Assembly (NCBI GenBank): GCA_010015585.1
Contig: ML975162.1
Direction: 5' to 3' (one strand)
Source: Eremomyces bilateralis CBS 781.70
Taxonomy: Eukaryota
Length of the DNA: 64,000 nt
Shown here: positions 4,198-51,824 of the stretch, piece by piece
How the letters are laid out: every line of letters starts with the position of its first letter
Position numbering within the stretch: the first letter of the stretch is position 1
Notes under the pieces: generated by a model
Databases searched by the model: none
What the model saw: only the letters and a program-made list of their open reading frames with translations
What the model was told of the DNA's origin: nothing
Program-made: the position numbers and the translations under genes

Positions 4198-4836
4198 ATG
4201 CCTCCCTCTACACCTTCCTCTTCTACCAAAAAGCGCCGCCGCATCAAATCCCCCTCCCCCATATCCTCTGACTCCTCCGCCCACTTCTCCGACTCCTCCA
4301 CCGACCTCACCCGCGAACTCAACCGCCTCGGCGGCCCCCCGCTCAAACCCCGGCCCACCTCCCGCCCGCGCACCACCCCACGCCACCGCTCCGCCGACGC
4401 CATCGCCTGCCCGCACCCCCACTGCGCCTTCGCCACGCGCTACCGCATCGACATGCAGCGGCACGTACGCAACGACCACCAGCGCGATTGGGCGCTGCCG
4501 TGCGATGTGTGCGGGAAGACGAGCCGGGATCTGGGTGTGTGCGATCATCGGGAGAAGTATACTCCAAGCCAGGACCCGGAGAAGTTGGAGGCGGTGAAGT
4601 GGGATGATAAGCCGATTCGCGCGCTGAAGCTCACGGGGGAGAAAGAGTCGAATCGGGAGAAGAAGGAGTCGCTGGGGGAGATGCTAGCGGAGAGGCTGAA
4701 GGCGAAGAAGCCGGCGACGCGCAAGGAGGAGCTGGAGGAGGAGGAGGAGCCGGGGTGGAGGCGCGAGAGACACAAGGAGGTACCGGCGTCGCCGATCAAG
4801 AAACAGGAGGCCAAGCGCCGGAAGTATTTCAACTAA
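4198..4836 (+). CDS. hypothetical basic nuclear protein with a C2H2-type zinc finger
   Basis: 212-aa ORF with CPHPHCAFATRYRIDMQRHVRNDH followed by CDVC; KKRRR NLS-like motif. Confidence 0.65.
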   Translation: MPPSTPSSSTKKRRRIKSPSPISSDSSAHFSDSSTDLTRELNRLGGPPLKPRPTSRPRTTPRHRSADAIACPHPHCAFATRYRIDMQRHVRNDHQRDWALPCDVCGKTSRDLGVCDHREKYTPSQDPEKLEAVKWDDKPIRALKLTGEKESNREKKESLGEMLAERLKAKKPATRKEELEEEEEPGWRRERHKEVPASPIKKQEAKRRKYFN

Positions 4837-34429: not shown

Positions 34430-35724
34430 CTTCTCGCCTCATGAGTCTGAGCTCTACTGAGACTCAGGAGCATAAGGAGTCTCAAAAGGTACCTCGGCCT
34501 GGGGGTAATGCGAGCCAAATGTCGTCGCTCCCCTGTTGTCCAATCGATGATAGCAGAGTGCGAAGCTACGCGGTTCTATTCTTCACCTTAGCCACACTGT
34601 TACCACTTAGATCTTGATAGAGCTGAACCAACATCCCAAATAACCACAGTCCCGGGAGCCCACCTAACGCGAGCCTGATAGTCAATACCACGGCTAATAT
34701 GGTTGTATAAGAAGTTCAAGAGCGCCTCGCTCTCTTCGTTCTTAAACCCGACGATACTTCGGGTAACTTTATGGTAATTAGCAAAGGCTTAAGCGGTGGT
34801 ATATGATGACTTACAAACGCTGTTTACATATAAGGCTTTCTGGCCAGTTGCCGGGTGAGTGCGCACGATAGGATGCTCCGAAGTAATAGGTTCTCGTCTT
34901 ACTACTCCACCCAGTTTCCTACTAAACTCGGATTGTTCGACTCCAGAATGGACCGCCTTAAGTCCATGCAAGCGATCCTTTAGGAGGGGCGACAATCGAT
35001 TGTACGCCTCGACCTGGTTGACAAATGCAGTGTCACCACCAACTTGTGGAACATCCAAGGCGTATAAAAATGTGGTGCCTAGTGGCTGCTTCTCGTATGA
35101 GACGTCGGAGTGCCATGAGACACTACTAGTCCGTTTGGCCAATAATGAGTCAAATCGCCCGAATTCCCATTTCGATGCACCATATGGAGCTCAGGATAAC
35201 CCTCGGGGCTTCCGCTAGTTGGATGGATGTGATGACGGCCGAAATAGCCTCCAAAGTCGAGGGCGTCCTGGATTGGGAGGTCGGTAAGGTCCTAGTCGCG
35301 GAAGGCGACAACCTTTCGCTGGGCAACGAGCAAGGCGAGCTGGTCTTTACCAGCGTCGCTGAGCTTGCTGAGCTGGACCCCAGTGACCTCTGATCCCGTG
35401 GTGGGAGTGAGATGCTGGAGCTTGGAGCCTTCAGTTAGAAGGTCCTTAAAGCCTGGATCCGCCCCTTTGCCGTGCTCGATATGCTCGAATGGCTGGAGGG
35501 GTTCGTATTTCTGGCTATGGTCCCAGATTGGCAGATAATGCGGGGACTATGCTATCGTTAGTCCACGTCTACAGCAACTGGAGTGTGACAATATACACTC
35601 GCTGTGACCCTATCACCCTCTTCGTCAATTGCCCTTCGAACTCTGGGCTTCTCCTTAATGGGTTGAGGATTGGCCTGTACGGAGATGGGAATATTTTCCG
35701 CTTGGTAGATGTGACCGTGGCCAT
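34430..35724 (-). pseudogene. TauD/JLP1-type alpha-ketoglutarate-dependent sulfonate dioxygenase pseudogene
   Basis: WHSDVSYE, GGDTAF, HPIVRTHPATG, VIWD|NR.ASH motifs. In-frame TAG at 35292-35294 (FRD*D), plus apparent frameshifts near 35700, 35160 and 34500. Confidence 0.88.
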
Positions 35725-42649: not shown

Positions 42650-43513
42650 ACAAAATTGGGCATCATTAGTATGTACTTTAATCTCCGAATCATTTGGCAG
42701 TACTACGATATCGGCGAGACACGTGACCGGTTCCAGCCACCTGTTTGTCACAGAATATCTGTGTTTCTTGGCGTTTCCCCACGGCTTCATTCCGTATTCG
42801 ATTCGATAACCCTATTCTTTCCCTTTTTAGGGAATAGATCACCATTTTAAACCATATAAAATAGCTGCAGGAACAGCCTGTTTTCGTAGGATCTGGCTCT
42901 TCAGGATCAAGTTCAATTTATCTACGCTCTTTTGGAATCTAACGGGGTTTTCCCACCGTGTCGCTGCATTAATCACCTGATTGAGCGAAACCGCTATTTA
43001 TCTCACAAAAGGGACATCCTGTTGCGAAAGTACTTGTGCTCAGAGTCCTTGCTTTTGACTGATACGTTTTGAATCGATCGCAGTGGTAGTAATATCGTGT
43101 TTTGATAGTTATTGGTTTTGTGAGGGTAGCTCTGTTTGACTACGAAGTCGTAGCCATGCTGCATGCCATGGCTCTTAAGAGCGTTATAGGCTTCTTCATA
43201 GGAGGTGTAAAGACAATCCGGAGGGGGTATAATATCCTCCATACTTGGTGCTTGTCATAGACCGACAGGTACTCAATTATAGTAAGTAGTTATTCTGGTA
43301 TTGATAATCTGAATGAGACCTCGAAAGGTTACCAAGGAGTAGAAGGTCTTATAATGCGTTGCGAACGCGTTGCGAACGCGTCGCGAGACTGCTTTGGGAA
43401 ATTATGCGCTAGATTAAATTGGGCGATTAATTTCTATTGTTACTGGCGTTAGGGACAAATCTCATATCATATTGGGGGAAAATCTCAAAATGTTTGGGAC
43501 AAATCTCACCAGC
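42650..43513 (-). mobile_element. truncated Mutator-like fragment (FAR1/WRKY-type DNA-binding N-terminus) with one terminal region, joined to a TA-flanked end of possibly different origin
   Basis: ORF 43242-43003 reads YTSYEEAYNALKSHGMQHGYDFVVKQS, then after a frameshift YYYHCDR...TGCPF. Repeated GGGACAAATCTCA at 43451-43508; left end TA|ACAAAATTGGGCATC. Confidence 0.6.
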
Positions 43514-43545
43514 CTTTTTGAATCGATTCTGAAACTATTCTGATT

Positions 43546-46500
43546 CTATTCCCTACGTCCCAGACCTAGGTAGAGTTCTTGCTCTTTCTGATCATTCTCA
43601 AGTTTCTTTGCGCGGAGCGTCTCTTTCTTCAATTCTAGCTCAATCCGCCTCTCTTCTAGCTGTAACTCTCTTTCCTGTTGCTGAAGCTGCGATTCTCGAA
43701 CCTCATGTGTCTGACGAATAGATTGCTGCGTGGCAACTTGACGAAGAGAGGGAGGTCTGTAATATATTAGTAAAATATTCCGAATATATTCCGAGTGAAT
43801 CTATACCTGAGTGAACTTCTACGATTCCGTTCCGTTGAAGTAGATGTTGATCGAGATAGTCGTCTACGGATAGGAGCTGATTCCTGGGATGATACTGTTG
43901 AGTCAAGGTCGTCGTCCCAACGTCGTCGTCGCCGAGATCCTAAAATATTGATCAACTAACTATAACAAAATGAATAACTAGTTAGTTAGTCATAAAGTAA
44001 TCAAACTTACGATCACGACGTATAACCTCCTGATATCTCTGAGATAGAGACATATTACGATACGTATGGGGCATACCGTATTCTTGTCGATTATCTCGTC
44101 TTTTTAAATCATACTGATCGAGAAGGAGAGCGCTTTTGGAGTTAGTAATATATTCCTAAAATATTCAGAATCTCTTACTAATATATTGCTCTCATCAGAG
44201 GTAGCTTACGCCTAAATGAATTACTCTTAAAATGAGTCTGCTGGACAGCGTTCGTATGATTTCGGGTTCGATCCCACAATTGAGGCGGAATCAAGGAGCA
44301 GTACTTATTAATTCCAGACGCAATCACAGCTCTCTTCTTGTGCTTTGCCCACTCTCGGACTTTTGCGGAGGACTCTGGGTGACCTAAATGTTTTAGAATA
44401 TATTCAATATACATTATGAATACAATTACTTACTCATAAGCTCTTCACAAAGATCATAGTAGTCTTCTTCAGATCGACAGCGGGCTAACTCTCCCATTCT
44501 TGAATGTATTGATGTTGTTGAACGATTTGATGTCCCGGCGGCGCGATCAATAGACCGTTGAAAGTGGATTTGACAGAAGATTACCGTATTCTGAACCTGC
44601 CACTCCCAGGAACGGGATTCGGAATCAAGAGTCGCAAGATATTGCCCAAACCCTAATATATTAGTAATACTTTTTGAATAGCTTCCGAATATATTTCGAA
44701 CCTTCAAGTTGACCAAGTTCCATATCGACGACAACAGTACCGAATCCTCTCCCATGGAGATATTGCCAACAGACTTCTCGTTCTAGCCGAGAAGAGATTA
44801 AAGTAAAGAGGGCTTGAAATGCCTTTTGATAGCAGAGGCTACTTTTACCGTTGACGAAAATCCGCGCGAAGGTAAACGCTATAAACGTTAGAATATATTA
44901 CGAATATGTTCCGAATATTTTATACTCTTCTCAAGTTCGGGGACAAACGCCGCGAGTACAATCTCGTTGATCGAACTCTCGCGAACCCGCTGAAATCCCA
45001 TATCAATTTCAAATGATTCTCTATTAAGAAGAGCCTCCGCCTGCTCTTTGAAGAAACAGGCAATAAGGAGATTCTCTCCATCGAAAAAACATTCTTGAAT
45101 ATACTGATTTATATTAGCAATAATAAATTCATAATAGTTTCACAGCGTGCTACCTGGTCAGGTTTTCCTCCTTGCTTTGAGTACTCGTGCTCGACCGCAG
45201 CAACGGACTCTCCTAATGGATATGATAGGAGTCTTTGCTTCTGAAGCAATGCGCTTACTTTATCAAGGTTTGTAAAGCTCCTATGAACATCAGGCAGAGA
45301 AGTCCCTTGATATTGGGTACAGAAGGCTCGCATTTGCGGATGCTTCAGAAGGCCGGCTGTGAAAGTAAAATATTAGTAATGTATTCGAAATAGTTTTGTA
45401 AGATCTTACCAAGTGTGAGTGAAGGGTTATTGATTCTCTGAATGACCTGAAGGATTTGCTCAAGGTACTGCTGCGGTGTTCTCGTTGGTGGTGGTGGAGG
45501 ATGACTATGCGTTCCACTTGATACCCATACTAGATATGGAGTTCTATCCATATCGAGTGGTTGGAAGACGGTAAAAAGGACCTGGCAAGGCAAAGACACA
45601 AGTTTCCCTTGACCCTGGGTATGATCCACGCCTAAAATATTTAGAAGATATTCGGAATGTGTTCTAATAATATTCATACCACATGTTTTCGCTCGACTAT
45701 TCTGCTGCTTTAGTATAGTACAGACCTCGGACGTAGTATCTTGTACTCCGCTATTGAAGACGGTCTGTAGAAACTCGATCTCAGGGTAGAGTTGTCCTGG
45801 TACCAGTTTCATGAAATGATTTGATCCTGGCGTAGAATTTCTACAAGCAACGTAGAAATTAGGAACTCCAGAAACAGTCTAAGTATGTTAGAATTTATTC
45901 GGAATACAATAAAGAAGCGAAAACCCTGGAATGACCTACCACCTGGTTGCTTTGAAAGATATGAGGATTACAGGAATAATCCTGTATATCCTTACATGCT
46001 TTTTCTTTTGCAAATACAGCTTGTATGGATTGAAAGAAGCTACTATCGTTAATAAACCAGGAATATATTCTAAATGTATTCAGAATTCATTATCACCTGT
46101 TTGCGTTCCGCTTAACACTTGAAATCTTATGTTCCTGACGAATTTCTTGTACTCTCGTCCAGTCGGGCTCTTGAACACTAGTATGATGCATTTCATAGAG
46201 CTCAGGCGCGAGAAACTCGCACGCCTTGACTCCTGTGCATCGATAACTGATACGGTAGCATCTTACATTATCGAGTATTCGAGCTTTGGATTCATGTTTC
46301 GACCACTTGAGCGCAGATGAATATTGAACCTGTAAAATATTAGTAATATATTCGGAATATATATTAAGTTCATACCGTATCAAGCTGATTCGGTCGATTC
46401 ACCAAGTTGATTCCTGATAAATTCACGATATACGCCACGCCATCATCAGATGTATCTGGATAGTCAGGTAGACATGGAGCATGTATTACCTTTCTTACTA

Positions 46501-46723
46501 TAATCTCATGACTTTGGTAATCAGAGATTATAATAGGATCATCTTCAGGCGGGAGAGAGGGACGCGACTAATATATTAGTATAATATTCAGAAAATATTA
46601 GAAAACCAAGCGCACCGAATCTTCTGTAAAAGTGTCTGAATCAAGTTCGGGATAAACGTCGCCTTCGACATCGTCTATTGTCGACCACGAGGTAGAAAAT
46701 CTGACTGAAGGAAATTGACTCAT
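43546..46723 (-). CDS. intron-rich Mutator-like (DDE, CxxH) transposase, 14 exons, 833 aa
   Basis: Introns: 46568-46615, 46330-46375, 46040-46096, 45879-45939, 45632-45679, 45357-45409, 45104-45153, 44879-44925, 44653-44701, 44384-44433, 44133-44178, 43940-44010, 43757-43806. All are GT-AG and phase-compatible; the exons total 2502 nt with no internal stop. Motifs GTHSHPPPP, SFEIDMGFQRV, VVVDMELGQ, FCQIHFQR, HTNAVQQTH. Confidence 0.82.
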
Positions 46724-48225
46724 TTATCGGGAATATATTCGTAATATATTTCTGGTTGTTGATCTTTAGAATGTTTTTTATGAGGGGCAATGGGGGGCTA
46801 GAGCTCAGATGAGAAAGATATATATTATCCGGTTTCAGATCACGTGGACACGTGCTCTCAGCTGAGCACACAGACCATCTCAGATGACCTGTAACCACCA
46901 CTGGTGACCTGGTGAACTGGGTCCTGGTATCCGTCCATCCGTCCTTGGTGTCAACACCCCCAGGGCTCCCTCCCATCAACACTCTCTCAGCCATTTCATC
47001 CATCTGTTTTATACTCCGTTTTACACGAACCACCCAGGATCTCCTTTGCTTATGTTCTAACTTCTACCGGTCTCGACATAGTGATTTTTGGGAGCAACCA
47101 GAATCCATTGGTCAAGCTATGGTCTATGGATGAATACGGAATACGCCCGAAGCTGCGCCGCAATCCATAGAGGTCGATTGAGAGGAACAACTATACAATT
47201 GATTGCTATTCAATATATATGTCCCACAGATGCTAACATCTTCAATTTCGTTTTGCGGCGTGGTGCCTCTCTTCCTCTATGGGGTTTGTACTGGAAGAAC
47301 AATTTTCAATTTACGACCGAATCCTGTTGGCACAACGTATCCCACCGCGAAATGCTCCTTGCTATTGTTTATGCGGGCAGTGGAGCTAGAACTCTACAAA
47401 TGTTGGAGGAAGATACATAACATGCAAGGTATGAGATTCTCACGGCAGAATTAGGGAGACCGCACCCTCAATGTGACAAGGTGAATATATTCCGTAAGTA
47501 GCGATGTTTTTTCGCGATGTCGGCTACAATTGACGATACATGGTTGATGGTTCTGTACCATAAGACTCGATGGGGTGGATTGTGGCTCCCAATCGCTTTC
47601 TCTCCCCAGCAGTTGTTCTCAATCGGGTCTGAATATCATCTTTAGTTGTTATTCATTTGCTCAGATGTGTACTTCTTATTCTAAAAGCTATACATTCACT
47701 CGAGTTGTTACGCCTCCACCATGTTACTCAAAAGGCCCGTCTTTCAGCTCAGTCTTGTTGGACTATTAGGCCTCCAAATCCTTACCTGCCAAGCAAAATA
47801 CATGAAATCTTCACAGCATGGCTTCTCCTTTCAAAAGAATAGTTACCCGAGACTTGATACCAAGCTCCAGGTGTGTCTTGGCGTGTCCTGGCTACGAACA
47901 TGTGCATCCGTTCAATACTCCCAAGGAAATCCTGAATCCAGGGAGTGGAAGCCTGCAGTGTGGATGTACCAATATTCTTCGTGAGCTGAGTCAGTTAGAG
48001 GAGCGGGCTCCTCTGGTGGAGGGGATCGACGCGATGGACGTCTCGACCCAGGCTTTGTACAGAGCTGTGTCTGTTGCTTGCGGGACGTCTTCGTTTCATG
48101 TTTTGTGATTGTGTTCCTTCCACTCCATGAAGATTTCCATTCCAGCATCATCTCCTAAAAAACGAAAAAGGCATCTTATTCTCATACAGGAAATGCTATA
48201 CGAAAATCCGTCCGCACTACCAACA

Positions 48226-49233
48226 TCAATCACTGTTTTCCCCCAATTTCTCTAAGACCAAGTTCAGGTTCTCGCGAGTGAGCAGCGTATTCGGATGGTC
48301 GTCTCCCAACGTTTTCTCATTCCACGCATGGCAGGACTGAAGCTGCAACTTAGCATTCTGTAGCCGACCGATGTTCATGTATGCGACGGCCAAGTTGTTC
48401 ATAATTGCCACGGAAAGCGAATCTTCATCTCGGGCATTCCGAAACACCTGTAAAGCCTCTTCCAGAATCCGAATTGCCTTCTCCACCCCCTCATGTTGTT
48501 CTGCTCCTTCCTGGCCTTGGTCGTCGAGCGCCTTATAGGTATGGGCGAGGTTCAGAATGCACTTAATGGTTGTTGGATTCATTTCCCCCAGCTGAGCCTT
48601 GGCCGTTTCTGCCGCCACCTCCTGCAACTGCACTGCCCGGTCCAACTGACCAAGTCCCCGATACGCAATCCCAAGTAAATCCATCGACGCAATGGTGAGA
48701 GAATGTTCCCTGCCCAGCTCCTGGATCCTCCATTCCAGGATTTTCTCATGCAGCCCCACCGCCTCTTGATATCGTCGCTGGGCCGTATAGAAATTTGCCA
48801 AATTACTGAGCCTGGTCATCGTAGTGTTGGAACTCACGCCAGGTATCTCCATCCAGCCCAGGACTACCTTCTCCTAGAGTTAGGCGCCTTCCTCTATGCG
48901 TCCTTGACCTTTCAGATCGAATGCGAGATTCTCCATGGTGGTGAGAGTGTTTACGTCGTTCTCACCCAGGGTACGTTGTTGTCGTGCCAGAACATCCCGA
49001 TCGATTGGCTCAGCTTCCCCGTGACGGTCCTGCTCTCGGTAGTTGGTAGCCAGCATGAGCTGCGCGGCTGATTTGTCGTCGTCGTCGTCATCGAGGACGT
49101 GTTCAGCAAGTTCAATCGCCTGGAGAAATAAGTTGTTAGACTCGTTCAGATTCCCCTCGAACATTTCGTCGAGGGCGCGGCCTCGTAATTCTCGTATTTG
49201 GGAGTGCGGGGATGGTGGGGAGGATACCATCAT
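48226..49233 (-). pseudogene. TPR-repeat (kinesin-light-chain-like, as in fungal NLR sensors) gene with two in-frame stops
   Basis: Repeats such as LGENDVNTLTTMENLA, LGREHSLTIASMDLLG and LGDDHPNTLLTRENL. Two ORFs in the same frame are separated by TAA 48880-48882 and TAG 48874-48876. Confidence 0.8.
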
Positions 49234-49707
49234 CAGTGACGGTACTGGAGATTTTATTATATGTCTTGGCACCTTTCTGGTTGGGTTTGCATTCATTCAG
49301 GCTGCGTGGAGATACAAAAAGGGGTGTAGGGGGTGTTAGAGAGAGAGAGGTGGACGATTGCTTGATGAGGTTGAGTTTAACGAACACGAATAGCTCGCCT
49401 AGCGTAGCTTGGAATACGAACAATCCTTTCCTTCGTGTATGTATGATGGACCATAAGAAAGGATAGATGAATGTCTGCCTTCCACTCCAAAGTGGTGCCT
49501 ACCCTATCTCTCAACCTTATGAGTTATGAGTATCCCTTTCTGTAAATAAGGGTGAGGTTGTAGAAATACTCTCCCTAGGTAATTATATGAAGAATCTCAT
49601 GAAGGAAGTGATTTGATAAGCCTCGGATAGGCGACGGACGATCATCAGCGCAAGCAACTTAAATAGCTAACTTGATTGAGTGGAGTTACCAAATAATCTC
49701 TATCCCA

Positions 49708-51498
49708 TCACACCCCAGAATACACCGCCGTCACCCCCCTTCCGCACTCCACCCTCTGCTCCACATCCACCCACCTCCCTCCAACCCTTACCCTTGCCCT
49801 CGGCGTGAGCTGCAACCGATTCTCTTCCCCCTCCTCCCCCTCTCCCTCCAAACTCCCAATATACACTGGCGCCGCCACATTATTCCTCTTTCCCGTCCCT
49901 AGCTGATAAAACTCATTGCCCCCAAAAAACAGCACATCCGCCCCCCACTTCGCCTCTCCCGCCCGCATGCTCGTCTCGTTCCCCATCACCGTCGCCACGT
50001 GCGTACTCCCCACGCTCACCCGCCCCACCCGGATCGGCACGATCTGGTTCGCCGCCTCGGACCACTCGTACAGTCCGCTCAGCGCCGGGATCTTCGTCGG
50101 CGCGCTCTGCAGGTGCGTCCACCGCCCGTTGCCTAACGTCCCGTAGATCCCGCTGCCACACGACCACGTGTCCGCGATCACACCTGCGGGACCGAGCCGG
50201 CGCGTCGGCGTCGGGGGCTGGAGTTGCTGCTGGACAAGCTCCGCGGTACCGCCAGCGGTGTCGCGGTGGCCGGTGGGGGAGGGGGCGGTGGGAGTGGCGT
50301 CGACGGCGAAGTAGCTGTTCGAGCCGCCGGCGGCGATGGCGGTAACTTTGGGGGTGGAATTGGTGTAGAGGCGGTGGATGGGGATGAGTGAGGGCACATC
50401 GATGTAGGAGGCGGTGGTGGAGGGGAGGTCGAGGCCGAGTTGGCCGAGAGAGTTGTCGCCGAAGGAGAAGACGCGGCCGTCGCGGTCACGGACGAGGGAG
50501 TGGTAGTCGCCGGCGGCGATTTGGGCGATGGGGAAGCCGCGGAGGGTGGTAAGCTCGTGGCAATGGGAGGTAGAGTCGGGATGGGAGATGCGGGAGAGTG
50601 GGCCGGAAAGGCCGAGTTGGCCACGGCTGGGGAAGGTGGTGGGGGAGGTGGGGGCGGAGAAGACGCGGCCGGAGGAGGTGAGGAGGAGGAGGTGGTCGAG
50701 ACCGGAGGCAATGGCGGTGAATTTTTCGGTCCAGCCTAGGTTAGGGGGAGTGAGTTGGCGGTAGGCGATGGAAGGTGTGCGGCGCCAGCTGAACCAGCCG
50801 GGTTCGGTGGGCGTTTGCAGTTTGGCGGAGATGGGGATGGAGTAGACGGCACCGTTGGTGCCGAGGGCGACGATGCGGTCGCGGGAGATGGCGAGGGATT
50901 TAAGGTTCTTGCCTCGTAGCGTCTTGATGGGGTCGTGGTGCTCCGAGAAGCCTTGGCCCCATTGGAGCAGGTCGCCATTCTCGTCGATGGCGGCGCCAAA
51001 GGTTCGGTCGAGCTTCAGGTCGCGCAGGAGCATGCCGTCAAAGAACGAAAGGCGTCGGGGTGTCTTGATGAACTTCTCGTCGGAGTCGGGAGCCGTGACG
51101 TGACCGCTGTTGGATCCCCATGCATACACTCCTGGATTCTCCAAGCTCTTCTTAACCTGAACATGTTGCGAGCTCAGGAGGTCCCGAGTCTCCTCTTTTG
51201 TTTGTCCCTTCCGTCTCGGCTTCTCAAACTCGAGGACAGGCTCCTCATCCTTTTCCGCCGCTTCCGCGTGCGCAGACGGGAAGCTCAGCGGTCCGGATAC
51301 CAGATGGACGGTCCCTGCTCCGAGACCAGCAGCTACTAGAAGATAGAACGGGGACGTGAAGTGCCGTTGGGAAGCTCGGGAACTATTAGTTGAGATATAT
51401 CTTCGTCCGAACCCTCGCGAATATTGAGACCGTTTCTCGCATGTCGCCTGTAATTGTCGAGTCGCATAGCGCAGACATTGCGCTCGTGTATTGAGCAT
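49708..51498 (-). CDS. FMP25: mitochondrial RCC1-repeat protein Fmp25/Bca1
   Basis: SSQHVQVKKSLENPGVYAWGSNSG, TPRRLSFFDG.LLRDL, IAAGDYHSL, FSFGDNSLGQLG, GGNEFYQLGTGKR; presequence plus TM segment. Confidence 0.85.
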   Translation of the reverse strand: MLNTRAQCLRYATRQLQATCEKRSQYSRGFGRRYISTNSSRASQRHFTSPFYLLVAAGLGAGTVHLVSGPLSFPSAHAEAAEKDEEPVLEFEKPRRKGQTKEETRDLLSSQHVQVKKSLENPGVYAWGSNSGHVTAPDSDEKFIKTPRRLSFFDGMLLRDLKLDRTFGAAIDENGDLLQWGQGFSEHHDPIKTLRGKNLKSLAISRDRIVALGTNGAVYSIPISAKLQTPTEPGWFSWRRTPSIAYRQLTPPNLGWTEKFTAIASGLDHLLLLTSSGRVFSAPTSPTTFPSRGQLGLSGPLSRISHPDSTSHCHELTTLRGFPIAQIAAGDYHSLVRDRDGRVFSFGDNSLGQLGLDLPSTTASYIDVPSLIPIHRLYTNSTPKVTAIAAGGSNSYFAVDATPTAPSPTGHRDTAGGTAELVQQQLQPPTPTRRLGPAGVIADTWSCGSGIYGTLGNGRWTHLQSAPTKIPALSGLYEWSEAANQIVPIRVGRVSVGSTHVATVMGNETSMRAGEAKWGADVLFFGGNEFYQLGTGKRNNVAAPVYIGSLEGEGEEGEENRLQLTPRARVRVGGRWVDVEQRVECGRGVTAVYSGV

Positions 51499-51824
51499 GT
51501 TGACAACCATTGGCCAAGTCCGGGTCAAATGGACTTTTCCAACCCGTTCATTAGAATCAAGTCAAAACCAGCTAGTAGCACATCGAAAGAAATTGGGAAG
51601 ATCAAATAGAATTGAAAAAAGATAGAGGAAGTGTGAGAAAGATAATATAAATCTAAAGTCATGAACGTCACTTTACCAAAATTGCCATAGCGGGACGAAA
51701 GTTCCCCGGAGTCTTGGCATTCAAGATCCCTTGTGGTGCTTCAGTTCGATTAAGGGACTTCGATTAAAATGCCACCAAGACCTATCAGACAAACCACCCT
51801 TCACGTCTCTTAAAGCCGCCCGAA

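Follow-up and report, generated by a model that had tools for sequence, protein, structure and literature searches.

Structure of the gene and its transcript

The DNA analysed here, a stretch of 64,000 nt from contig ML975162.1 of Eremomyces bilateralis CBS 781.70 (assembly GCA_010015585.1; hereafter the window), carries on its minus strand, at 43546-46723, a gene of 14 exons separated by 13 GT-AG introns of 46-71 nt. Its coding sequence (CDS) of 2502 nt specifies 833 amino acids and a stop. The product is a homologue of the Mutator-like/IS256-type DDE transposases, an assignment supported at the level of predicted fold and sequence features, and the copy is probably an expressed, immobilised and catalytically disabled Mutator-like element (MULE) belonging to a family with stereotyped periodic introns.

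Introns were found with a dynamic-programming script for GT..AG pairs followed by hand curation, and the boundaries were set by contigs from public sequencing runs over 43300-47100. With these RNA-supported boundaries the spliced CDS has zero internal stops and a single terminal stop, and a separate protein-to-genome aligner returned the same 13 introns and phases. A stop-to-stop list of open reading frames (ORFs) for 43000-47300 gives nothing but fragments of at most 177 residues. In contigs of run X3 every predicted intron (13 of 13) is missing, each with ends that read CT..AC on the plus strand, as is a 14th intron (43434-43509) in the 3' untranslated region (UTR). The DNA run X1, which bears the same organism label, yielded one 31-kb contig with the unspliced form and none of the joints, and for this reason the X3 contigs were read as spliced transcripts. 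The locus is accordingly a real gene of 14 exons that is transcribed and spliced throughout. All 13 junctions listed in the original prediction are present in these transcript-like contigs, and its model, including intron lengths and the 2502-nt frame, matches the scripts and X3 joints exactly. The features of the transcript are as follows, each exon being supported by the scripts and the X3 joints.

46724-46776, minus strand: 5'UTR, in the transcript contig; upstream end estimated from contig depth
46616-46723, minus strand: exon 1
46568-46615, minus strand: intron 1, 48 nt, phase 0, GTGCGC..TATTAG, period-11 array
46376-46567, minus strand: exon 2
46330-46375, minus strand: intron 2, 46 nt, phase 0, period-11 array (Tandem Repeats Finder, 46332-46362)
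46097-46329, minus strand: exon 3
46040-46096, minus strand: intron 3, 57 nt, phase 2
45940-46039, minus strand: exon 4
45879-45939, minus strand: intron 4, 61 nt, phase 0, 5' site GTAGGT
45680-45878, minus strand: exon 5
45632-45679, minus strand: intron 5, 48 nt, phase 1
45410-45631, minus strand: exon 6
45357-45409, minus strand: intron 6, 53 nt, phase 1
45154-45356, minus strand: exon 7
45104-45153, minus strand: intron 7, 50 nt, phase 0
44926-45103, minus strand: exon 8
44879-44925, minus strand: intron 8, 47 nt, phase 1, period-11 array (Tandem Repeats Finder, 44891-44922, 2.9 copies)
44702-44878, minus strand: exon 9
44653-44701, minus strand: intron 9, 49 nt, phase 1
44434-44652, minus strand: exon 10
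44384-44433, minus strand: intron 10, 50 nt, phase 1
44179-44383, minus strand: exon 11
44133-44178, minus strand: intron 11, 46 nt, phase 2, period-11 array
44011-44132, minus strand: exon 12
43940-44010, minus strand: intron 12, 71 nt, phase 1, unit of the ACTAACTAGTTA type as in the metagenome locus L007
43807-43939, minus strand: exon 13
43757-43806, minus strand: intron 13, 50 nt, phase 2, period-11 array
43546-43756, minus strand: exon 14
43300-43545, minus strand: 3'UTR, exonic parts 43300-43433 and 43510-43545
43434-43509, minus strand: 3'UTR intron (14th), 76 nt, GT..AG, 21-nt repeat, lacking the AATnnATT unit

Intron 5 is a multiple of three and free of stops in the frame of exon 5, so that an ORF reads through it, yet it is spliced in X3.

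A search with the 156-residue read-through ORF returned one protein, the 481-residue 'hypothetical protein P152DRAFT_68557 [Eremomyces bilateralis CBS 781.70]'. It is identical to part of exon 5 through exon 12, starts at Met234 of our model and differs at its end. It also removes 66 coding nt (44186-44251, encoding the 22 residues WDRTRNHTNAVQQTHFKSNSFR, including TNAVQQTH) as an extra intron, and in so doing loses the third catalytic position. The X3 contig is unbroken over this segment, covering 44179-44381 in one piece. The public NCBI model of the gene is thus truncated. The gene had been described as hidden, which holds for the ORF list, with its fragments, but not for NCBI, which already contains the truncated model; that annotation misses much of it is borne out by this truncation and by the silence of Pfam.

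Fold and catalytic residues

An AlphaFold model of P152DRAFT_68557 had a pLDDT of 85.3, and the top five Foldseek matches to it were chains of ISCth4, a member of the IS256 family (E 8.7e-4 to 4.3e-3). Its neighbours in the ESM-Atlas are named MULE or carry PF10551, and the clusters also carry ZSWIM1-3_RNaseH-like and SWIM. Sequence searches of the PDB with P152DRAFT_68557 and with the family profile gave just low-complexity or chance matches. At the level of the fold, these models support an RNase-H-like core closest to those of IS256/MULE transposases. The MULE/IS256-type DDE assignment of the original prediction, for which comparison with MULE/IS256 RNase H folds had been proposed, therefore stands as regards structure, with ISCth4 as the best match, but not as regards the Pfam MULE model, which is silent.

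The N-terminal Cys/His region was modelled from exon 6 (pLDDT 80.9). A structure search with this model gave WRKY domains only at E 6-9, among unrelated rows, and a sweep of the full PDB found nothing. The region may resemble a WRKY-GCM1/FAR1-type finger and is presumably DNA-binding.

The spliced protein was aligned by mafft with 42 homologues of at least 550 residues, and the motifs were read from this alignment.

45501-45683, minus strand: Cys/His-rich region C277, H281, C293, H319-x-H321, then PPPPP
45002-45004, minus strand: codon of D453, first catalytic Asp; D in 38 of 42 homologues
44724-44726, minus strand: codon of D530, second catalytic Asp; D in 38 of 42
44564-44575, minus strand: C564-x-x-H567 (C564-Q-I-H567); C in 36 of 42, H in 37 of 42
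44241-44243, minus strand: codon CAG of Q658, at the position of the family's catalytic Glu; E in 35 of 42

The Cys/His region ends in G-x-H319-x-H321-PPPPP. Its residues recur in most homologues (C277 in 37/42, H281 in 36/42, C293 in 39/42, H319 and H321 each in 41/42), as do N655 (34/42) and H661 (31/42) on either side of position 658. The Cys/His region ending in H-x-H, the D...D pair and CxxH are therefore present as originally predicted and conserved among the long homologues. The motif after the second Asp, C564-Q-I-H567, conforms to C/D-x-x-H, which is a MULE signature. The order is D...D...CxxH...(E), with spacings of about 77 and 128 residues between the members of the triad.

The third position differs. 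Where T-N-x-x-E had been predicted, the codons ACG AAC GCT GTC CAG (44255-44241) read T-N-A-V-Q, and neither X1 nor X3 has a letter at variance with them. The complete D-D-E triad is thus absent: D453 and D530 are kept, with Q658 in the place of the Glu. Of the metagenome loci, four extend over this site and all four have E, in contrast to the Q of the window protein. The idea of a recurrent E-to-Q change was rejected; three other rows with Q or H at this position lack the TN..E..H motif and are misaligned or degenerate. The window protein keeps 31 of the 36 columns conserved at 80% or more (retention 0.86, in the lower third of the family), and the changed ones are F379, Q457 (K in the family, four residues past the first Asp), Y518, Q658 and R668. 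DDE enzymes lose all or most of their activity when the metal-binding Glu becomes Gln, and from this substitution we infer that catalysis has probably been lost here.

Introns and UTRs of the window gene are built from 11-nt units

The introns of the gene resemble one another in having an 11-nt period. Their lag-11 self-identity is 0.51, compared with 0.31 (sd 0.018) for shuffled sequence, and lag 22 gives a second peak. When the whole window was scanned for lag-11 identity (sliding scan, W=24), all nine strong segments fell within the transcript of the gene, eight in 43400-46800 and the ninth at 43343-43394 in the 3'UTR; at lags of 7-10 and 12-15 the gene has 0-1 segments, compared with 2-19 for the rest of the window. 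Tandem Repeats Finder reported period 11 in 7 of 12 rows. With one mismatch allowed, the pattern TTCSGAATAT is matched 27 times in the window, where chance would give 9.3; 22 of the 27 lie within 43775-46747, and the five outside the gene are within chance expectation.

The consensus of the window unit is AAtATATTccg. The final unit of an intron is usually ATTACTAAT followed by RYATTAG, and the upstream units are CCGAAT or CGGAAT, which are not branch-point-like. Arrays also occupy exonic parts of the UTRs. The 5'UTR has two AATATATT units 11 nt apart directly before the ATG (46725-46750), and the 3'UTR has arrays at 43343-43394 (GCGTTGCGAAC, 2.8 copies) and 43509-43555. The 13 introns and both UTRs are thus built from phased 11-nt units with the core AAnnnnTT, mostly AATRYATT.

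Two simple accounts of the arrays were rejected. RNA hairpins between palindromic units are disfavoured by folding scores, which lie between z -1.67 and +0.89 relative to shuffles in 13 of 13 introns, and Rfam gave no match at E<=1 over 43200-47100. Nor does an array make up a whole intron (GT, four palindromes and AG), as just 6 of the 79 shared-position introns considered below start, and 12 of 79 end, exactly so.

The intron in the 3'UTR is of another kind. It holds 2.7 copies of a 21-nt unit, GGGACAAATCTCA... (43434-43509, minus strand), and short pieces at 43415-43450 and 43480-43514 are found again elsewhere in the DNA run, in contigs that differ in depth and in flanking sequence. A small dispersed repeat lies in this intron and is spliced out here.

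The protein family and the introns of its relatives

Against 1.84 billion representative proteins, a phmmer search with P152DRAFT_68557 (481 residues) gave 42 matches at E<=1e-30, rising to 275 at E<=1e-10 and 761 at E<=1e-3. Among named relatives the highest identity is 39%; fragments without a name do not exceed 67%. Named members come from the Dothideomycetes, Eurotiomycetes and Sordariomycetes and from Taphrina and Auricularia (the genera being Plenodomus, Zopfia, Coccidioides, Polytolypa, Microsporum, Penicillium, Hypoxylon, Jackrogersella, Triangularia, Ilyonectria, Taphrina and Auricularia). Hypoxylon fragiforme has two loci with an identical family protein, Ilyonectria destructans three paralogues in one 90% cluster, and Penicillium maclennaniae three family loci. 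Because some fungi hold several near-identical copies per genome, the family is or was mobile. Sequence comparison thus indicates a transposase family that is widespread in fungi and has no Pfam model.

A metagenome scan with a six-sequence alignment of exon 6 gave nine loci (L001-L009), whose proteins are 34-56% identical to the window protein and 27-61% to each other. The nine loci cover 80 of the window's intron sites, and 67 of these have an intron within 2 residues, 63 at the exact position and phase; most unmatched sites have an extra intron 4-13 residues away, in poorly aligned regions. The family is therefore intron-rich, as had been proposed, and the agreement indicates that the 13 intron positions are ancestral in it. 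For the 79 shared-position introns the median length is 51 nt and the GC content 0.21; at least one CTRAY is present in 53 of them, and 17 have two or three.

The period recurs in these relatives. Lag-11 identity is 0.45-0.56 in L001-L008, against about 0.30. Over the nine loci, 5385 nt of intron contain 136 cores of the form AAT(AT/GC/AC/GT/TA/CG)ATT, where shuffles predict 6.7, and 18739 nt of exon contain 14. A further 46 lie in 5558 nt of flank, where several arrays belong to additional introns, either in the weakly conserved N-terminal part of the gene or in a gene next to it. Of 75 intervals between neighbouring cores, 66 measure 11 nt, five 22 nt and two 33 nt. The sequence of the unit varies between loci.

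L002, L005 and L006: unit consensus AATaTATTact-like
L003: unit consensus AAcaTaTT
L007: unit consensus AACTaaTT, with TTACTAAC repeats

Intron 12 of the window bears the L007-type unit. Some database fragments of relatives run on into introns at places that correspond to exon borders of the window gene, which gives peptides like ..RIHSKYITNILG, translated from TTCCGAATATATTACTAATATTTTAG-like DNA. This peptide pattern occurs 16 times in 14 of 150 matches, against a shuffle expectation of 1.3, and about 10 of the 14 fragments are clear intron read-throughs.

Two loci carry a second, small Cys-rich gene in convergent (tail to tail) orientation, at L002:3360-4248 (minus strand) and L005:2600-2981 (minus strand). 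It ends in C-x2-C-x6-C..C..AQYTD, with a C2H2-like HTGNLKHHVKGH stretch in L002, and Pfam found nothing in it. Its introns have period 11 too, and one intron lies at the same place in both loci. The arrangement suggests a two-gene element. Further arrays lie upstream of the gene in L006, and the GC-rich flanks of L001 and L007 have none.

Two irregularities were seen among the relatives. The intron of L008 at the position of window intron 5 (L008:729-932) is 204 nt long instead of about 50. Its 5' end is normal, as is its 3' end with AATnnATT, but the part between them is GC-richer and may be a nested insertion. Downstream of the gene in L007, where the contig finishes on its 3' side (4316-4415), are about eight tandem copies of a 12-nt unit, CTTGTTTTGATG (reverse strand).

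Copy number and surroundings of the locus

No pair of terminal inverted repeats (TIRs) with a target-site duplication was found within 2 kb of each flank: the best inverted alignment between the 2-kb flanks scores 25, below the shuffled maximum of 32, and a repeat finder gave just intron-to-intron pairs and no flanking TIR. The locus is spanned by one 31-kb DNA contig at the depth of its surroundings, and no other contig matches at 90% identity or more. The original prediction had set the gene among decayed neighbours; as relatives these did not materialise, the window containing no second copy or decayed family fragment (best match outside the gene, E 0.069), and the neighbours show no strong signature of repeat-induced point mutation (RIP). 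GC content is 0.45 in the exons and 0.25 in the introns, against 0.51 for the window, and the 36-48 kb region is lower (0.41-0.48) than the rest. RIP was rejected as the cause of this AT-rich neighbourhood, its indices being unremarkable.

Upstream of the transcript lies a block of motifs that is also present in L001 (100-300) and L003 (1-110).

46790-46900, minus strand: upstream block CAGGTCAyC, CAGCTGAG, CACGTG, TATATCT, TGAGCTC

TATATCT is TATA-like and TGAGCTC lies near the likely start of the transcript. The copies that share the block are just 51-56% identical in protein, and the block is probably a promoter carried by the element or its family.

The neighbouring genes are ordinary.

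34789-35190, 48226-49296 and 49708-51561: TauD-family dioxygenase, TPR_10/TPR_12 protein and RCC1-repeat protein

An 83-residue ORF just downstream of the gene (43003-43254, minus strand; ..LYTSYEEAYNALKSHGMQHGYDFVVKQS..) had no Pfam match at E<=0.01; it seems to resemble the start of a FAR1-type DNA-binding domain.

State of the copy

The original prediction called the transposase intact. In the functional sense this is unsupported, because Gln replaces the catalytic Glu, no TIRs lie within 2 kb and the copy is single; K457 has also become Gln. That the locus is nevertheless an autonomous, recently arrived and still mobile Mutator-like transposon is very improbable. Such an element would explain the open 833-residue frame with all introns spliced, the retention of both Asp and CxxH, the composition of exons and introns, which is as for a foreign element, and the multi-copy state of the family in other fungi. 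It is opposed by the lost Glu, the lack of TIRs, the single copy in the contigs compared, and the confinement of all period-11 arrays to one transcript, with no convergent second gene of the intron style of L002 and L005. Less easily set aside, though still unlikely, is an exapted single-copy host gene, selected for a non-catalytic role in DNA binding or regulation in the manner of FHY3/FAR1 and MUSTANG in plants. An exapted gene would be single, TIR-less, expressed and correctly spliced at 14 introns, would keep its frame open despite the loss of the catalytic Glu, and could keep the 31 conserved columns and the family-type promoter block, all as seen here. Yet we found no close orthologue in other species (the nearest being the 39% identical named relative and the fragments of at most 67%), the composition is still unlike that of the host, and column retention is in the lower third of the family. 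Between a recently disabled relic and an exapted regulator, we lean towards the relic. The copy probably still yields a protein able to fold and to bind DNA but unable to cut it.

Several points weigh against our reading of the locus as a disabled Mutator-like element with periodic introns. The TM-scores of the Foldseek matches are just 0.28-0.36 over the whole model. Pfam has no meaningful match in 12 single exons, in the 156-residue read-through ORF, in P152DRAFT_68557 or in 19 long homologues; PF10551 (MULE) is touched by 2 of 50 family members, with a best E of 0.047. Because PF10551 does not match, the superfamily assignment rests on likeness of fold and in the language model. Q658 is placed at the active site by alignment, as the 481-residue protein that was folded lacks those 22 residues, and the open frame with 31 of 36 conserved columns would also fit an exapted gene still under selection. 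The library type of run X3 is not on record and was guessed to be RNA, and strand, expression level and rare isoforms are beyond what its contigs can reveal. The evidence on copy number and TIRs comes from one window and one contig set. As regards the arrays as binding sites, L009 has a lag-11 identity of 0.32 and no periodicity, the units of L003 and L007 are weakly palindromic, and most arrays hold a branch-point-like CTAAT, which fits a purely splicing-related origin.

Origin of the periodic introns

Because intron sequences are normally free to drift, the uniformity of the units suggests a constraint on all introns of an element at once. Our preferred reading is that the arrays are putative binding sites. 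The 11-nt arrays would be phased, at about one helical turn, as DNA sites for a protein encoded by the element, and would also satisfy the spliceosome: ATT-ACT-AAT spells a branch point and ATT-AG an acceptor, so that the arrays would double as a splicing signal. The transposon would thus have made its binding sites spliceable and so be able to retain them as modules within its own genes, the unit and the specificity of the protein would evolve together in each lineage, and, as a corollary, detached arrays could seed new introns in host genes. Taken as a whole, with the transposase N-terminus or the Cys-rich partner as the binding protein and with the seeding corollary, the proposal is tentative, and we put its chances at about one in a handful.

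Somewhat better placed, while still short of an even chance, is an account in which the periodicity has no function at the DNA level. A module running from branch point to acceptor (CTAAT-RYATT-AG) would be multiplied by slippage, and redundant branch points close to the consensus would secure the splicing of very short introns whatever the host. This account accommodates the usual final unit with its RYATTAG, the CTRAY motifs in 53 of 79 shared-position introns and their repetition in 17, and the TTACTAAC-like repeats of L007; stable hairpins are lacking in 13 of 13 introns, so that RNA structure is not the constraint. It does not account for arrays in exonic UTRs, where no branch point is needed, or for the upstream CCGAAT and CGGAAT units of the window, and independent slippage predicts neither the strict 11-nt phase (66 of 75) nor the uniformity of units across a lineage over 9-13 introns. 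The introns might instead show the style of a donor genome, retained after horizontal transfer, which we regard as improbable. The neighbouring convergent gene of L002 and L005 has like introns, L006 has further arrays upstream, and the window gene is compositionally foreign, all in keeping with such an inheritance. However, loci 27-61% identical share the 11-nt period, so that many different hosts would be needed; the neighbour lies in the same arrangement beside the 61% identical transposases of L002 and L005, which fits a two-gene element; the GC-rich flanks of L001 and L007 have no arrays; and no genome-wide intron style of this sort was found in the literature searched.

Significance and comparison with known systems

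For annotation the gain is a modest correction, from a truncated 'hypothetical protein' to an 833-residue, RNA-supported Mutator-type transposase homologue that lacks the catalytic Glu. Of wider interest is a fungal transposase family with 13 introns at fixed positions, in which an 11-nt unit varies by lineage and is uniform within each copy. These family-wide, element-specific periodic introns are a new observation, go beyond the finding of the original prediction, and are the feature most worth pursuing; a search of the literature, supplements aside, gave no description of a transposase family with period-11 introns. Should the constraint be a DNA-binding protein of the element, as in the binding-site reading that we prefer, it would form a new link between transposon cis-sites and spliceosomal introns and offer a testable system for how transposons make or maintain introns, and the family would become a candidate for the autonomous partner behind fungal intron gain of the introner type. 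If splicing optimisation alone is responsible, the family would still illustrate clearly, from nature, how introns can be 'portable' within a gene that moves horizontally.

The gene shares with MULEs (mudrA of MuDR) and with IS256 (ISCth4, PDB 6xgx/6xg8/6xgw) a predicted RNase-H-like DDE core, the D...D...CxxH...(E) order and an N-terminal Cys/His region. MuDR carries two convergent genes, mudrA and mudrB, and the relatives L002 and L005 likewise carry a second convergent gene. Unlike these systems, the family is not detected by PF10551 and has 13 conserved introns made of 11-nt repeats, and in the window copy Gln replaces the catalytic Glu and TIRs are lacking within 2 kb. Domesticated MULE transposases include FHY3/FAR1, MUSTANG and ZSWIM. 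The window gene is like them in being single-copy, TIR-less and expressed, with an N-terminus of the Cys/His DNA-binding type, and differs in its element-like composition and in belonging to a family that is multi-copy elsewhere.

Introner-like elements (ILEs) have an unusually stable predicted RNA structure, whereas none of the 13 window introns does. The introns described here also lie within the genes of one element, at positions conserved across relatives of 27-61% identity, are of ordinary fungal length (median 51 nt), and have no counterpart in other genes of the window, where near-identical intron copies in unrelated genes were absent. ILEs and introners, as described in the available part of PMC4457414, are near-identical copies spread over unrelated genes. 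The introner-like elements of Dothideomycetes and other introners are nonetheless comparable in that their introns are alike far beyond the needs of splice signals and in a possible link between transposons and intron origin (available text of PMC4457414 and PMC12130899). The sister (stw)introns of the Hypoxylaceae are internally symmetrical, with a 10-nt palindrome TTTCTAGAAA; they are 93-200 nt long, have terminal inverted repeats of 45-55 nt, are dispersed in host genes and have recently proliferated (PMC8469720, as far as its available text goes). They too are fungal spliceosomal introns with a palindromic, symmetrical sequence common to many introns, but within that same portion of PMC8469720 they show neither tandem repetition at 11 nt nor a connection with a transposase gene, the word 'transposase' occurring 0 times in it. 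In the sections available of PMC8469720, PMC12130899 and PMC4457414, the look-alike or symmetrical introns described are spread over unrelated genes. The Hypoxylaceae also hold members of the transposase family of the window gene.

A different parallel is offered by the subterminal repeat arrays that DNA transposons carry and their transposases bind. En/Spm has 12-bp subterminal motifs that are bound by TNPA, and Ac has AAACGG repeats. As in these elements, motifs of about 11-12 bp occur many times, in both orientations, in the non-coding DNA of the family described here. Unlike theirs, the motifs are strictly phased, lie in every intron and in the UTRs, and are putative sites.

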